From Patellaria atrata CBS 101060 (lineage: Eukaryota), in NCBI GenBank assembly GCA_010093705.1, contig MU006102.1, positions 438,123 to 502,122 of the forward strand: 64,000 bases of DNA, read 5' to 3'. The notes beneath the pieces were generated by a model. That model did no database searches and had not been told where the DNA came from. It worked only from the letters and a program-made list of their open reading frames with translations. Both the position numbers and the translations under genes were made by a program. Of the stretch, positions 27,568 through 36,958 are shown in pieces. Every line of letters starts with the position of its first letter. The first letter of the stretch is position 1.

Positions 27568-28229
27568 TTTTGTGATAGCACAAAGAAATATCGGTAAGAC
27601 AGTATTTGTAGGTACGGATGAACTGTATAGAGCGCGGTGCCTGAAGAAAAGATGTTGTTCTGGTGTTGGAGACCAGGGGAAAGGAGTGTTAGGTGACGTA
27701 TCTTCGGACCTGGTCTTGTGGCTTTATTGAGCTGCAGGAGTGTCAAAAGACAAGGAAAGACACAATCAATGGCGGAAACAGATGCCGAGGACAAGTGGTA
27801 CTGTGAAAGCAATAGAGGCGTCAGAAAGACAATAGAAAAGGTGAATGAATGACTGTTGACCCCCAACCCAAGTCGCGCGCTGAGAGTTGTCAGCGAGCTG
27901 GTGAATGTATGAATAGAAAAGGCTTCAAGGCTTGGTTAAAGGGCCAGTTGGATGTCGTGAAGCCCGACGGGAATGCGTGCGCGCTGAACCCTGAATATTG
28001 CGGTGCAGGGGGATCAATGCCCGGCTCTCTGAATGGCTGCCTCGTGAGGTTCCTTTTGATTAACACACCCCCCGTGCCACCTCGCGAACCGAACTTTATC
28101 GACAATCTCTTAATCCCTGCTCTCTATAAGCGGATTTTACCGACATACGCTTTTCAAAACGTCTATCACCGAATTATTATATAACGTCTCCCCTCGCCGC
28201 CCAGAAGAAGAAGTGCGTCACACATCAAG

Positions 28230-28942
28230 ATGATTCAACTAAAGGTACCTTTCCGATGCGATTCCCATTCTAATCCAGGATGATGGCCCCCAATTGTCGC
28301 GTTACCCGATCGCTGACCCCCATTCTCATCCCAGACCCTCGTCAACTGCATCGACAACTCCGGCGCCGCTATCGTCGAATGCGTAAAAGTGCTGCGCATG
28401 AAGAGAGCTGCGAAAGTTGGTACGGATATCCTTTCCATCCATCCCCGAATATATATATATATACCTTACCTCCCATATCTCCCCATCTGCTTATCTCCCA
28501 TGCACCTCCCAATTCGAAGTACACTCGTATCAAGAGTAGTCGTTCACAATAGGAGACAATCTGACGCAATTTCAGGTGACCGCATAATAGTAGTCGTTCA
28601 AAAACAACGGAACTTCGGTCCTGAATCTGGCCCCGGCGGCAGCGTCTCCATTAGTGCGGCGAACAAGGTGCGGAGAGGGGATATCAGACACGCAGTGGTG
28701 GTACGGACGAAGAAGAAGTACCAGAGACCGGATGGAAGTGTCGTAGGCTTCGACGACAACGCGTGTGTGCTCATAAATAAGTCGGGGGAACCGATTGGGA
28801 CGAGGTTGAACGGTACGTCGGTATGAAAAGCATCAGAAAACATATTTAGACTAATGGTGATGGGATTTTAGGCATCGTTGGATCAGAGCTACGGAATCAC
28901 AAATGGTCGAAGATTTTGTCATTAGCACCTATGCATTTATAA
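28230..28942 (+). CDS. MRPL38: Mitochondrial ribosomal protein uL14m; exons 28230-28244, 28335-28419, 28576-28812, 28872-28942
   Basis: [53 protein letters not shown] and WSKILSLAP. Confidence 0.93.
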
Positions 28943-29164
28943 GTGCGGATTATTGCATGTTTGAAGCATTTCAACCGGAGCATTTGGAGTATAGCAATAG
29001 ATGTAAAATAGCCTTTGTGGCATGCAATTGTTATAATTATCCCCTTTCGAAAATCCCCAATGGTCTTTTCTAACCCGAACCTCAGTTTGTCCTAACTCCA
29101 TGCTAAGAACGATCATACCGGCAGATTCCTCACCATGACAAGGTAAAAATGGTCAAACTGGAAA

Positions 29165-29962
29165 TTATGGCGCATCTGGGTCTTGCCAGACATTACCACA
29201 ATTGCAGCAGACGTAATACAGTTTCTAAACGACAATCAGAGCTATTTTCCAAAAGTCAATTGAACAGTAAGAATGCTCACCATCCCTGTTTCGGCAGTAC
29301 GTTGTTGCGACTGGAAGAAAACAGCATCGTGCTCATGACAGGTCGTACACTCCTTATTTGTCCTGGGTAGCTAGTAAAGGACAAGAATAAAGTTGTTAGC
29401 TAGGCAAGCTCCATGAAGAGCAAATCGCAAAGCAAAATGAAACTTCTCAAGATGTAGAGTCGGAGTCTGAATCCGCATCTCCTGGTTTTGAATGCGAAGA
29501 GGTGCCTCCATTTTGAGTAACCCTATTGGTCGACATCTTCGTCGGGCCTTCGATGTTCATGTCCACGGCTTCGATGACAAAGCCTTCGACCGGTTCGGCC
29601 TCGCAGACCTCGCACATTATGGGGGTACCACACATAGTGCAAAAAGCGGGAAGGTCACCAACCGTTGGGTCCGATGCCACATCCTGCGTTATGCCCGCAG
29701 TTTCTCCTACGGTGGTGTTGAGATCGTTTTTGAATATACAAGCGGTAGCGGCGGGCTCGCTGAACTGGCATGTTCGACAGGCAAACATGAGGACGTTGTT
29801 GGTGGGATCTTCTTTTGGATAGAGGAGGTTGGAGCTGTACTATGTTAGTTATTGATGGTCGATTATATCTAAATTTAAAAGAACATACCATTCTCTGCAG
29901 AAGTTGAACTCCACCTTTGGCTTCTCATCCTCGTTCGCTGCAGTTGGCGAGTTACCAGACAT
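29165..29962 (-). CDS. RPB9: RNA polymerase II subunit Rpb9; exons 29962-29889, 29834-29663, 29370-29281, 29224-29165
   Basis: [20 protein letters not shown] (N-ribbon), DVASDPT/LPRT linker, [30 protein letters not shown] (C-ribbon). Confidence 0.95.
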
Positions 29963-30501
29963 GATGATTTTATTAAACTTCTAGATGGTGTTGATGCTGT
30001 GGATTCGGACGATTTGCGGATAGTTGTGTGGAAGTGATGTTATTCAGATTCTGTGTGATTCTGGTAGAGGCTCTAGTATAGTTAGGTGCTTTATATACCT
30101 GCAGTAAGTTTGTTGTGATGTGAGTCAGAAAAGTTGAAAGAAGAGACGAAAAGCAACCTAAGGTGGGTATGGGTGGAGGTCAGTTCAAAAAACCCAAAGC
30201 TCGCCGCAGCAGATCTTAGCGCGTGATGCTTTCGGGCCTTAGAACTTGCCGACCAGGGATGCTGGGCCCTTGCCCCACCTGCCGTCGCAACCTCGAAGTA
30301 CATAGAAGCAAACATCGCCGCTCAACTACAGCTTCACTCAACCACCGTGAGAGGACTAAAGAGGGTTTTAAGTATTTCCACAGTCGGTCGCGGTTCTCAC
30401 TGATTAGCTGCACTGAAACTCATCGCTGGAAACTTCTGCCCTCGAAGACCGTATATACTAATACCTTGTAATACCTCCAGCCCATCACCCAACCTACAAA
30501 C

Positions 30502-31233
30502 ATGGTATGTTACTCCCTTAATACATATTCGAAATTCAAATCTAATGGTCCTTCTATAGGTTGAGACCGGTCTTCCGGATGGCTGGGAAGTCCGCCATTC
30601 CAATTCTAAGAATCTTCCATACTACTTCAACCCAGAGACGAAGGTGTCAAGCTGGGAACCTCCATCAGGGACGAATCCCGAGAAGCTGAAGGTGTATATG
30701 GCAGAATATCATAGCTCGGGTGGCATTCGACCAGGCCCTTCTGCTGCGAACGAGGGGAAAATTCGATGTGCGCATTTATTGGTGAAGCATGAAGGAAGTA
30801 GAAGACCTTCCAGCTGGAGAGAGGCTAAAGTCACGCGCACGAAAGACGAGGCTATGGAAATAATACTGGCTCATGAGTCCAAGATTAGATCTGGGACTGA
30901 ATCACTGGGTGATCTAGCCGTAACAGAATCGGATTGCAGCAGCGCGCGGAAGAAGGGTGATCTGTAAGTGGATGGTCTGGGCGCAATGAGCATTGGAGGT
31001 ATACTAACGTTGTCGTTCAATAGTGGATTCTTCGGAAAGGGCGACATGCAAAAGGAATTCGAAGATGCGGCTTTCGCATTGAAACCTGGTGAGGTCAGCC
31101 ATGTGGTGGAGACTGCTTCTGGGCTACATCTTATCGAACGGTACGTAGATATCCTGTTTATGAACAATCTCGATCTATTTTGCGAGCATGTTAAGGTACT
31201 GACTTGACTTGAGTATCCACTAGGCTTCAATAA
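30502..31233 (+). CDS. ESS1: Parvulin peptidyl-prolyl isomerase Ess1/Pin1; exons 30502-30504, 30560-30963, 31024-31140, 31224-31233 (last exon tentative)
   Basis: WW domain [21 protein letters not shown]; parvulin [31 protein letters not shown] and [10 protein letters not shown]. Confidence 0.95.
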
Positions 31234-35303: not shown

Positions 35304-36958
35304 ATGGCGATCATTCTCCTTTGGTTACTTGCCGCAACTTTTGCTCTATCCACAGCATCCTATTTAGCATTCAACAAACGACGACGGGAGATTGTGGTCA
35401 ACCGTTTCTTCAAACGGCGTCGAGACTCCGGTTCAAGGACTCCTCCTCGCTCCCTCTCCCCGGAGAAGAAAGGTTCTCAAGAACCTCCATCTCCCGATTA
35501 TAGTGATACTCTACCCCCATCTCGGCGTTTCACTTTGGACAGTATACCAGGTCTCAAGGTCCCATTAGTCCCTGAGAAGAAAAGGTTCATCCCTTTAGAT
35601 GTTCCGTATGATGCGGTTGATGGCACTGCATTTACGGCTACTGGATTTTCGACAGATGACATCAAGGCATTGGGCGACTTCCCAGATTATGCTACATTGA
35701 GCGGCGTACCCTTGCCGGAACCTTACCCTGAATTTGACATCACAACTGCGAAGCCAAGGCCATATCGACCACTTAGGTGGGCTTATCATCAGACTATGTG
35801 TGAGTATCTTCATGCCTACTTGTATATAAAGTAGCATTGAAGCTAACTTGAGATGTAGCTTTGACTAAGATGGAACCTGACTGGTGGCTGGAACTCGAAG
35901 ACACCTACATCAAACGAGTGAAACAACGGTGTGAGATCTTTGAAAAAGTCGGTCACCACGTCCTAGCAGGTCTTCCCGGTTCGGAATTAGCCTGCAAGGA
36001 GTTGATGGAGATGTGTTTGCAATTCCTCTGTGTCCGATATCCGCACTACTTCAACCTGGATAAGGAGAACATGAAGTTCGAGAACAAAATCTTGGAGACA
36101 ATCACTGACCTGAAAACCACCCCACCATTGCACGTCATCATCCAAAACGTACCCGAGGATTTCGGCATCATGTTACGGAATCCCGAGACCGGTCTCTATC
36201 AATTGCGTGCCGGCGTCATTTGCAGCGCCCTAGGATGGAACGTCAACACCAAACTCAACATGAAATTACACGAAATCCACGCCCCTATTCCCGACTACAA
36301 AGAAAAGATGCAATTCTCCATGGACAGNNNNNNNNNNNNNNNNNNNNNNNNNNNNNNNNNNNNNNNNNNNNNNNNNNNNNNNNNNNNNNNNNNNNNNNNN
36401 NNNNNNNNNNNNNNNNNNNNNNNNNNNCCCCTTCAATCAAATCAAAACACAACATCACCTAACACCACCTCCATTAGATACTTCGCGAAGAAACCAACCG
36501 ACAAGCCCATCCAACGCGGCTCCTGGGGCCTCGAAGTCGACCAACCCCTCTACATGCCCCCCGGCGACCCGCACGAAAAATACCGCGAATCCCAAGTCCC
36601 CGACGTTTCACTGGACCGCATGCACCTGCGCGTAGACTGGCAGACCCTGCGTCGACTACCGCTTTCCGGCGCCGTCGTGTTCAATTTTAAAGCCCTCTTC
36701 ACCCCTGTCGCTGAGTTCCGCGACGAGGCGTACATCCCGACGCTGCTGTTGAAGGTCATCAAAGACGGGAAGAAGAATCTTATGGACTATAAGAATACGT
36801 GGCATACAGAGCATGTTGTAGTCCCTGCGTTGGAGGCGTATGAGAGGGAGCAGGTGGAGAGGGGCGTCGTGGAGAGGGAGTGGGAACCTAAGACCCTGGA
36901 TGAGAGTCCGTGGTTTCCGGGGTGGGAGGAGAAGTGGCGGAGACAGCAGGGGTTTTAG
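35304..36958 (+). CDS. DUF3445 (heme-dependent oxidative N-demethylase alpha-subunit-like, HRQ family) protein with N-terminal hydrophobic anchor; introns at about 35799-35858 and 36328-36477
   Basis: PRPYRPLRWAYHQTM, WWLELE, NVPEDF, LHEIHAPIPDY, RGSWGL and LRVDWQTLRRLPLSGAVVF. Confidence 0.8.
36328..36427. other. Assembly gap (100 N) within an intron of the DUF3445 gene
   Basis: Run of exactly 100 N starting right after GACAG; CCTAAC..TTAG acceptor follows at 36477. Confidence 0.98.

Follow-up and report, generated by a model that had tools for sequence, protein, structure and literature searches.

The RPB9 gene of Patellaria atrata CBS 101060 lies on the minus strand of the window, a stretch of 64,000 nucleotides of contig MU006102.1, where it runs from an ATG at position 29962 to position 29165 and consists of four exons separated by introns of 54, 292 and 56 nt (Table 1). 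The spliced product is 131 amino acids long and has the same sequence as the database protein P0002. Two Pfam domains are found in P0002: the N-terminal zinc ribbon of the RPB9/M type (PF02150, residues 19-53, E 3.1e-11) and the TFIIS-type C-ribbon (PF01096, residues 89-126, E 2.4e-13). Exon 2 alone scores 27.5 bits with PF02150, against a cutoff of 25.2. The two ribbons are joined by a linker, ..AG.TQD..SDPT; its profile aligns to residues 56-67 of yeast Rpb9 (PDB 1i3q_I), directly before the LPRSD.. of the C-ribbon, and its D, P and T residues are invariant in alignments A1-A3. The P. atrata gene is a full member of the RPB9 family, with both Pfam domains and the linker present in the spliced product. 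Intron 2 interrupts the coding sequence in phase 0, exactly between ..DVASDPT of the linker and LPRT.. of the C-ribbon. The earlier note on this DNA had described the same anatomy, and its intron lengths, phase and boundary agree with our coordinates.

Table 1. Features of the RPB9 gene of P. atrata, numbered from the first letter of the window and arranged in the direction of transcription.
Feature	Position	Strand	Match or supporting data
Exon 1 (74 nt, ATG at 29962)	29889..29962	-	spliced product identical to P0002
Intron 1, 54 nt, donor GTATGT, GC 0.26	29835..29888	-	
Exon 2: remainder of N-terminal zinc ribbon and linker, end ..QDVASDPT	29663..29834	-	PF02150
Intron 2, 292 nt, phase 0, GC 0.49, acceptor TAG	29371..29662	-	
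5' splice site GTTGGT of intron 2, which also forms tail codons Val-Gly; off GTRAGT at +3 and +4	29657..29662	-	
Candidate alternative C-terminal coding sequence continuing exon 2 (71 codons, P0001)	29450..29662	-	homologous tails in relatives; purifying selection in orthologues
Putative Cys knuckle C-x2-C-G-x4-C-x2-C, tail residues 8-20	29603..29641	-	spacer and Cys-codon data from relatives
TGA stop of the alternative frame	29447..29449	-	
Rest of intron 2, non-coding and AT-richer, 76 nt; CTAAC branch site at 29399-29395	29371..29446	-	
Exon 3: TFIIS-type C-ribbon, first half	29281..29370	-	
Intron 3, 56 nt, donor GTGAGC, GC 0.36	29225..29280	-	
Exon 4: C-ribbon, second half, and TAA stop	29165..29224	-	

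When exon 2 is read through into intron 2, its frame stays open for the 71 sense codons that had been reported from the letters alone; our translation matched that report exactly, including the C-x2-C-x5-C-x2-C arrangement and the acidic tail, with the TGA as the next codon. The four cysteines are residues 8, 11, 17 and 20 of the tail, and the 51 residues C-terminal to the knuckle contain 10 D+E against 3 K+R. When the interior of intron 2 was shuffled by mononucleotides 20000 times, an open frame of at least 71 codons was obtained 712 times (ca. 3.6%). In P. atrata DNA alone, the open frame is weak evidence and only suggestive, its significance coming from comparative data. Pairwise BLASTP of the P. 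atrata tail with tails of relatives gave E 3e-09 for P0038 and E 1e-09 for P0070. Intron 2 was also considered as an exitron, a reading that was rejected since 292 nt is not a multiple of three and since TGA occupies codon 72 in P. atrata.

Similar tails were abundant in protein databases. A search confined to proteins of at least 101 amino acids, and so favouring long tails, listed 120 matches, of which 72 carried a four-Cys read-through tail (one of them together with a C-ribbon), 30 had CxxCG only, 11 had other tails and 7 were canonical. A profile search returned 1229 proteins at E<=0.001; here the profile itself includes the tail, and the list again favours long tails. Cys-rich tails in other filamentous-ascomycete Rpb9 gene models, which the earlier note had mentioned, are therefore present in large numbers. 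After pooling, 228 non-redundant non-canonical tails were available. CxxCG is present in 214 of them, and 174 have two CxxC pairs and so the four Cys of a C4-knuckle-like pattern; the spacer between the pairs was exactly 5 residues in 169 of the 174. Forty of the 214 motif-bearing tails have kept only the first CxxCG, the second Cys pair being absent. The idea that one 4-Cys module is swapped for another is thus not universal; in the Colletotrichum gene models discussed below, moreover, the tail is inserted in front of the C-ribbon rather than substituted for it. Between the donor and the motif there is a variable linker of 5 to 78 residues, yet the motif never leaves the exon 2 frame. Named read-through models came from Dothideomycetes, Sordariomycetes, Lecanoromycetes, Candelariomycetes, Coniocybomycetes and Lichinomycetes, as well as from Thelocarpales, and these predicted proteins show that the tail is conserved in six or more classes of Pezizomycotina.

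The tail by itself was a less productive query. A word-index search among proteins of 70-224 amino acids and a scan of viral_contigs gave no match to the tail. A phmmer search with the 71-aa tail against 1.84 billion representatives, in which a 20-residue motif is underpowered, gave 5 matches at E<=0.001, none of them recognisable as Rpb9; these five are long proteins of 355-1837 amino acids with 3-12 matched stretches each. No description of an alternative RPB9 tail was found in the literature searched.

Orthologous loci were collected by a metagenome scan seeded with two exon-2 peptide patterns only, without any tail sequence. The end of exon 2 was visible in 44 of 46 loci, and in 40 of these a tail with CxxCG follows in the same frame, with all four Cys in 27 and CxxCG only in 13. 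The remaining four (L038-L040 and L044) contain early stops and no tail, and the tail is therefore not universal among orthologues. Intron 2 measured 169-526 nt in all 42 sequences in which an acceptor was found (41 loci and P. atrata); intron 1, found in 26 of 36 unique sequences, measured 45-68 nt, and intron 3, found in 30 of 36, measured 50-129 nt. A stop closes each of the 39 complete tails that bear the motif, and it precedes the acceptor in 38 of them; in locus L019 the frame runs beyond the acceptor. Frame +1 of intron 2 is also often open in these loci, and openness of a frame was dropped as stand-alone evidence.

The donor of intron 2 has the form GT[TGA]GGT in 30 of 36 unique sequences (GTTGGT in 17, GTGGGT in 9 and GTAGGT in 4); donors of intron 3 in the orthologues are mostly GTRAGN or GTAYGN. 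All 29 sequences examined have GGT as the Gly codon within the intron 2 donor, which is therefore held as a live splice site, while the Gly of the knuckle uses all four codons (8/11/4/10). The intron 2 splice site is kept functional but sub-optimal, its weakness being judged by consensus alone.

Selection on the tail was assessed by Nei-Gojobori counts in four lineage groups, all pairs being drawn from lineages other than P. atrata. Tail dN/dS was 0.03-0.27 across the four groups, and indels within the tail preserved the frame. In the pair L011 and L014, the tail differs by 2 nonsynonymous and 15 synonymous changes (dN/dS 0.03) with no indels, and its dS of 0.386 is close to the 0.398 of the exon; in the intron part after the stop, 23% of sites differ and there are indels of 1, 3, 5, 2, 1 and 1 nt. 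More generally, the post-stop part of the intron in orthologues diverges faster than the tail, with indels that are not multiples of three. The other pairs gave tail dN/dS of 0.08 (L007 and L009), 0.18 (L020 and L021) and 0.27 (L029 and L030); the tails of the last pair are 108 and 117 codons long and end in the same last residues. The cysteines are encoded by both TGC and TGT (13/20 for Cys1, 5/28 for Cys2, 13/9 for Cys3 and 12/10 for Cys4), and since these codons vary and the knuckle Gly uses four codons, the knuckle is held as protein. These counts show that the amino-acid sequence of the tail is under purifying selection in orthologues. The check proposed at the outset, namely that translated orthologous introns be compared for the four Cys, the weak donor and dN/dS<1, has accordingly come out in favour of the tail on all three counts.

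What the tail might look like was approached by modeling and by profile comparison. An AF2 model built with alignment A1 had a mean pLDDT of 57.5, with values of 62-69 at the knuckle and mostly <50 over the rest of the tail. The best Pfam matches of the tail were below threshold (DZR, E 0.036, 14.7 bits vs cutoff 27.3), so no curated zinc-ribbon family was assigned to it. A profile search of the PDB with the tails gave no match to the tail itself and returned sub-threshold zinc ribbons, as well as Rpb9 via 12 linker residues. Exon 2 joined to the tail had no PF01096 match. The four-Cys knuckle is a putative zinc-binding module.

We think it probable that intron 2 of P. atrata RPB9 has a dual use, such that splicing gives canonical Rpb9 and skipping of the donor gives an isoform with an alternative, selected C-terminus. 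The first 213 nt of the intron would then extend exon 2 as coding sequence, and the last 76 nt would be ordinary intron. Use of the non-consensus donor GTTGGT would give the canonical 131-aa protein with its N-ribbon, linker and TFIIS-type C-ribbon. If the donor were skipped, through intron retention or through cleavage and polyadenylation before exon 3, ribosomes would read 71 further codons and produce a protein of 153 amino acids. This protein would lack the C-ribbon and consist of the N-ribbon, the linker, the four-Cys knuckle and a disordered tail rich in acidic residues. Either of these two routes could generate the isoform in P. atrata. The N-ribbon and linker would presumably still seat it on Pol II, resulting in a polymerase with a different module near the jaw. 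A search for sequencing runs over 29100-30050 gave no RNA run; the two runs that contain the stretch (X1 and X2, from one sample of one study) consist of DNA contigs, which span 27800-30800 with no joints and are silent on splicing. As judged from the coordinates, a retained-intron mRNA may be a target of nonsense-mediated decay, since the exon 3/4 junction would follow its stop at a distance of 166 nt.

An alternative to this dual use is that the tail is an internal insert: a second 5' splice site, located downstream where the tail's frame ends, would join it to exon 3 and give a long Rpb9 that keeps its C-ribbon. Colletotrichum speaks for such an arrangement, its 13 gene models falling into two forms. 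Five of them (196-199 aa) end three codons past ..SWPTFQLA; in six (236-239 aa) the same ..SWPTFQLA runs directly into LPRSNKEC.. and the C-ribbon, the tail forming an in-frame insert, and the remaining two (228 and 230 aa) join deeper into the C-ribbon. The database protein P0190 has both Pfam domains ca. 140 residues apart, the Cryomyces minteri model P0021 (218 aa) combines tail and C-ribbon, and at codon 36 of the L019 tail there is a GTAAGA that is in frame and lies 103 nt short of the acceptor. The longer of the two Colletotrichum forms is, however, known from predicted gene models, and in P. atrata no in-frame GT codon of the tail reaches three of the four donor-consensus positions, while the tail stop lies 76 nt upstream of the acceptor. 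Most loci are alike in this respect: in-frame donor candidates are sporadic and at non-homologous positions, and every complete motif-bearing tail closes with a stop, with L019 as the one exception to its position before the acceptor. We therefore regard an internal insert as unlikely. It is quite improbable, in our estimate, that retention of the intron serves only to set RPB9 dosage through unproductive splicing and mRNA decay, the peptide having no function. The conserved non-consensus donor and a premature stop upstream of another intron would suit such regulation, and passages of PMC12861292 give intron retention as the commonest, dominant kind of splicing variation in fungi. Yet regulation at the RNA level predicts no amino-acid constraint, and it leaves unexplained the low dN/dS of tails whose dS equals that of the exon, the retention of Cys through TGC/TGT changes, the frame-preserving indels and the constant 5-residue spacer.

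Two further explanations were considered. According to one, the open frame arose by chance in a GC-richer intron and the database tails are read-through artefacts of gene callers. The shuffles of the P. atrata intron, the long open stretches sometimes seen in other frames and the many database entries from non-splicing callers (lgn and ena sources) are all compatible with this. Caller read-through would account for the presence of tails in databases but not for their homology across classes, nor can it account for purifying selection on them; the dN/dS, Cys-spacer and codon data already contradict this explanation, which is extremely improbable. The other holds that the intron houses a different resident, such as an antisense gene, a nested independent ORF or a small RNA. 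An antisense ORF of 118 amino acids on the plus strand does overlap exon 2 and part of the tail, and snoRNAs often sit in long introns of housekeeping genes. A search of Rfam, on the other hand, gave no matches at E<=1 on either strand of 29100-30000; the antisense frames of the tail contain 2, 1 and 4 stops in P. atrata and lack stops in no more than 6, 9 and 8 of 31 loci, and the other sense frames have stops in most loci. The motif keeps to the frame of exon 2 in spite of its linker of variable length, which fits fusion to exon 2 rather than an independent ORF, and another resident is barely credible.

One can take the dual-use reading further and propose that in a large share of filamentous ascomycetes one RPB9 gene gives rise to two kinds of Pol II. 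In the second kind, a zinc knuckle and an acidic tether with short aromatic motifs would replace the TFIIS-like ribbon at the jaw and serve as a recruiting arm (e.g., for the PH domain of TFIIH during transcription-coupled repair of the Rad26-independent type), and the balance between the two polymerases would vary with condition, set by the weak donor. We consider this proposal, as a whole, rather unlikely. Passages of PMC5727438, PMC11266705 and PMC8754651 describe how UVSSA, XPC, TFIIE-alpha, the C-terminal domain of yeast Elf1 and the N-terminal tail of RPB6 bind the PH domain of p62/Tfb1 through acidic, disordered stretches that contain a key aromatic residue. In UVSSA, XPC and TFIIE-alpha, a Val lies three residues past the key aromatic (as the feature is defined in PMC5727438), and PMC11266705 contains a statement that yeast Rpb9 is implicated in Rad26-independent transcription-coupled repair. 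The RPB9 tails contain 27.6% D+E, and among the 174 four-Cys tails there are 27 in which the pattern [FWY]-x-E-[VIL] occurs no more than 25 residues beyond the knuckle; shuffling gave a mean of 3.2 and a maximum of 9 such tails. The ..GFVIEAVD.. of the P. atrata tail does not fit this TFIIH-type pattern, and, in contrast to TFIIH-interacting regions, the acidic run in RPB9 tails comes, in most cases, after the aromatic residue rather than before it. The likeness to TFIIH-binding regions is only a resemblance, the motif being present in a minority of related tails.

In yeast, the individual domains of Rpb9 contribute separably to start-site choice, fidelity, elongation and repair. If the dual use of intron 2 is real, a whole fungal clade would tune Pol II itself by RNA processing, through a selected isoform that lacks the C-ribbon. 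To that clade belong crop pathogens (e.g., Colletotrichum, Pseudocercospora and Cercospora) and most lichen-forming fungi. Dual use would also account for the fact that public RPB9 gene models in these fungi span from about 115 to over 300 amino acids, and annotators may take it that both RPB9 forms can be real. Should the two-polymerase proposal hold as well, the tail would fill a role that falls elsewhere to UVSSA, to the C-terminal domain of Elf1 or to the tail of RPB6.

Compared with canonical Rpb9/POLR2I (S. cerevisiae, PDB 1i3q chain I), the alternative isoform would retain the N-ribbon and the linker; it would differ in having, in place of the TFIIS-type C-ribbon, the knuckle and an acidic disordered tail without a Pfam or PDB match. 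Exchange of the C-terminal module of Rpb9 alters polymerase behaviour. The proposed exchange point, after ..SDPT, is the same as in C-ribbon swaps among the TFIIS-like subunits Rpb9, A12.2 and C11. Chain I of PDB 3qt1, listed as an Rpb9/RPC10 chimeric chain (an engineered Rpb9-C11), aligns with our sequences at the linker. Unlike that chimera, the exchange in P. atrata would be natural and would take place within one gene through alternative RNA processing, and the incoming module is unrelated to the TFIIS ribbon. As a retained coding-phase intron with an in-frame stop, the extension of exon 2 would be of the same kind as other alternative C-termini that arise in fungi when an intron is retained. 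Such introns mostly show no conservation at the protein level, whereas the RPB9 tail is conserved across classes and under purifying selection, and it would belong to a core subunit of Pol II.

The spliced RPB9 product of the window (131 aa) is identical to its database protein P0002, which is labelled a hypothetical protein of Patellaria atrata CBS 101060, a dothideomycete, and carries the RPB9 N-ribbon (PF02150, residues 19-53) and a TFIIS-type C-ribbon (PF01096, residues 89-126). A profile alignment places the insertion point of intron 2 exactly at the linker/C-ribbon boundary of yeast Rpb9 (PDB 1i3q). The length of this intron relative to the other two, its donor and its phase 0 position at that boundary, all pointed out in the earlier note, were borne out by the window sequence, and retranslation in the exon-2 frame returned the very same 71 codons (here, the tail) with C-x2-C-x5-C-x2-C (the knuckle) at tail residues 8-20.

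Features of the RPB9 region (window positions)
Feature	Position	Strand	Remarks
RPB9 exons	29962-29889, 29834-29663, 29370-29281, 29224-29165	minus	ATG at 29962
RPB9 introns 1, 2, 3		minus	54, 292, 56 nt
Intron 2	29662-29371	minus	donor GTTGGT, acceptor TAG, phase 0 between ..DVASDPT and LPRT..
Intron 2 branch site	29399-29395	minus	CTAAC
Stop of the read-through frame	29449-29447	minus	TGA
Ribosomal protein gene, L14p/L23e type	28230-28826	plus	PF00238, E 2.9e-32
Assembly gap	36328-36427		100 N

The ribosomal protein gene, whose apparent start is at 28230 and which has at least one intron, lies tail-to-tail with RPB9, their coding ends being about 340 nt apart. A short C-run at 28068-28081 (..cacaccccccgtg..) interrupts the contigs from two sequencing runs of one DNA sample, which end loosely in poly-C there; the break probably arose during sequencing or assembly of those runs.

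The GC content of the coding-like part of intron 2 is 44-64% (36-nt blocks) vs 36-39% in the 76 nt 3' of the stop. When the interior of the intron was shuffled, 712 of 20000 shuffles were open over at least 71 codons; in orthologues, frame +1 is also often open over long stretches. Since the window alone barely beats chance, the case rests on comparison with orthologues.

A protein search with exon 2 alone, confined to proteins of at least 101 aa, listed 120 proteins, a set that shows homology rather than frequency because the length filter favours long tails. After the conserved ..DPT, seven enter LPR.. directly, as spliced models do; 72 have a four-Cys tail (one of them with the C-ribbon too), 30 a CxxCG-only tail and 11 other tails. 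Many of the listed models come from gene callers that do not splice, so the orthologous intron remains translated in them. Profile A3, built from exon 2 plus tails and thus biased to tails in its ranking, matched 1229 proteins (E<=0.001). Among the 120 matches listed, read-through models occur in Dothideomycetes (Pseudocercospora fijiensis, Cercospora, Septoria, Cladosporium, Verruconis, Elsinoe, Lophiotrema and others), Sordariomycetes (13 Colletotrichum), many Lecanoromycetes, and also Candelariomycetes, Coniocybomycetes, Lichinomycetes and Thelocarpales; class was looked up for six species, and the labels of all others are those we take to apply. The 229-aa P0147, filed under the plant Carpinus fangiana, is a fungal-type RPB9 with a Cys-knuckle tail, and its source is probably a fungal contig inside the plant assembly.

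Of the 228 non-redundant non-canonical tails in the pool, 214 contain CxxCG and 174 all four Cys; Cys-rich tails in other filamentous-ascomycete RPB9 models, as suggested in the earlier note, do exist. The knuckle spacer is five residues in 169 of these 174, and the distance from ..DPT to the first Cys varies from 5 to 78 residues (median 9), in frame every time. By BLASTP, the window's 71-aa tail alone matched the relatives' proteins P0038 (E 3e-09) and P0070 of Coniosporium apollinis (E 1e-09) over the knuckle and the ensuing ..EGFVIEAVD.. stretch; by sequence, it is a normal member of the tail family.

The tail begins with Val-Gly, whose codons double as the donor; then come a variable spacer and [FLM]-C-[TI]-[LM]-C-G-x-E-I-x-C-x-x-C-[GE]. 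Past the knuckle, many dothideomycete-type tails have G-[FC]-[WYF]-L-E-V-E-D and a long acidic low-complexity stretch; over 12078 tail residues, D+E make up 27.6% and K+R 6.9%. Lecanoromycete tails, in which the second Cys pair is often lost, have in common an aromatic-acidic motif such as ..VFDLSEMSRMEEED..; Colletotrichum has ..ITWDDLMDMAEDE.. AF2 modelling on alignment A1 (exon 2 plus tails) gave pLDDT values of 80-86 for the N-ribbon, a weak 62-69 for the knuckle and below 50 for the remainder, which we read as predicted disorder beyond the knuckle. Neither Pfam families nor solved structures matched the tail. A HMMER alignment set its ..C-T-L-C-G against the last CxxC of the yeast Rpb9 C-ribbon, a faint hint that the knuckle may stem from partial duplication of that ribbon.

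Metagenome contigs, scanned with two exon-2 peptide patterns only, are less biased than the protein sets and yielded at least 46 RPB9 loci, the end of exon 2 being visible in 44. An in-frame CxxCG tail is present in 40 of these 44 listed loci, or, after our grouping of near-identical sequences, in 19 of about 21 groups. The idea of one 4-Cys module swapped for another would fit the 27 listed loci with four Cys, not the 13 with CxxCG only or the four without a tail, where a stop follows after 6 (L038-L040) or 12 codons (L044). These tail-less loci have GTTCGT or GTATGT as donor; in L038-L040, intron 2 nonetheless spans 184-193 nt. Each of the 39 complete tails with the motif is closed by a stop; in 38 of them, a YAG acceptor followed by LPR..FFQSQQR comes 30-199 nt later, and in locus L019, a shifted frame continues beyond the acceptor. 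Intron 2 measures 169-526 nt in all 42 sequences with a located acceptor (41 loci and the window), intron 1 45-68 nt (located in 26 of 36 unique sequences) and intron 3 50-129 nt (30 of 36). In L029-L037 and L041-L043, intron 1 is apparently absent, the exon 1/2 junction being unbroken in the DNA. Between the near-identical loci L041 and L042/L043, a stop after ..MDWE makes the difference between a tail of 128 and one of 94 codons; the far C-terminal part tolerates truncation.

Nei-Gojobori counts were made for locus pairs with alignable tails. The tails of L011 and L014 differ by 2 nonsynonymous vs 15 synonymous changes (dN/dS 0.03) and no indels, and their dS (0.386) equals that of exons 2+3 (0.398); past the stop, 23% of intron 2 sites differ, with indels of 1, 3, 5, 2, 1 and 1 nt. 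Tail dN/dS was 0.08 for L007 vs L009, 0.18 for L020 vs L021 and 0.27 for L029 vs L030, whose tails (108 and 117 codons) end in common C-terminal residues. Very close pairs (0-3 differences), such as L033 vs L035 with 2 nonsynonymous and 0 synonymous, are uninformative. In 36 unique tail DNAs, TGC/TGT counts at Cys 1-4 are 13/20, 5/28, 13/9 and 12/10, and the Gly after Cys2 is GGC/GGT/GGA/GGG in 8/11/4/10, while the 29 sequences with Gly at donor positions +4 to +6 all have GGT there (the remaining 7 have CGT, TGT or AGA). This contrast indicates that the knuckle is kept as protein and the donor as a GTNNGT-type splice signal, a pattern that speaks for use of both splicing and read-through. Conservation of the four Cys and the donor, with dN/dS below 1, had been proposed in the earlier note as a check, and the range of 0.03-0.27 and the invariant GGT agree with it; the orthologue comparison supports the alternative-isoform interpretation.

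A chance frame or annotation artefact is contradicted by the tail dN/dS, the five-residue spacer in 169 of 174 tails and the variation of Cys codons, and purely regulatory unproductive splicing by the amino-acid-level constraint. The lack of any Rfam match, stops in the other frames and the constant exon-2 frame of the motif speak against an antisense gene, a nested ORF and a small RNA within intron 2. In the window and most loci, where a stop closes the tail and consensus-like in-frame donors are missing downstream, the tail could reach protein only through intron retention or a transcript end before exon 3; either would give a 153-aa protein without the C-ribbon. A retained-intron mRNA would carry this stop 166 nt upstream of the exon 3/4 junction, which might make it prone to nonsense-mediated decay.

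An insert isoform, spliced through a second in-frame donor at the tail end, is unsupported in the window for want of such a donor; it is plausible in Colletotrichum. Of 13 predicted models there, five (196-199 aa) stop three codons past ..SWPTFQLA, six (236-239 aa) run from it straight into LPRSNKEC.. and two enter the C-ribbon further along; the long models (228-239 aa) hold both Pfam ribbons, and their in-frame join is what implies the second donor. Both annotations of the gene (P0171-P0211) occur across species, and even within C. tofieldiae and C. graminicola. In several lecanoromycete loci (L029-L031, L033, L035, L041), the tail TGA lies within a recurring ..TCTTGAC.., 30-40 nt before the acceptor, which looks like a branch site. 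If so, the frame extends as far as intron signals permit, and these signals may have influenced the final conserved residues, ..KTS.

Judging from domain layout, the 153-aa isoform should still dock on Pol II, since the N-ribbon and linker are retained; the C-ribbon would be replaced by a small putative metal-binding knuckle and a flexible acidic arm. PMC5727438 describes acidic disordered strings binding the TFIIH p62/Tfb1 PH domain through a key aromatic and a Val three residues later (UVSSA F408/V411, XPC W133/V136), and the RPB6 tail is reported to bind it too (PMC8754651). According to PMC11266705, such a region serves yeast Elf1 in Rad26-independent transcription-coupled repair; rpb9 deletion is treated there as abolishing residual repair. 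[FWY]-x-E-[VIL] occurs just past the knuckle in 27 of 174 four-Cys tails, which are mutually related, vs a shuffled mean of 3.2 (maximum 9). The window's ..GFVIEAVD.. does not fit this pattern, and a TFIIH PH-domain-binding arm is, by analogy, our boldest reading of the tail and not the explanation.

Full-text literature searches returned no paper in which a fungal RPB9 isoform is described as alternative or intron-encoded; PMC13300194 gives four introns for S. pombe rpb9 and calls their role unexplored. Public databases already contain the tails, in long RPB9 models that have drawn no comment. An alternative C-terminus through intron retention is of a known kind; what is new to the searched literature is this instance, in which a core Pol II subunit has a probable second form, deeply conserved and under selection, whose module is undescribed.
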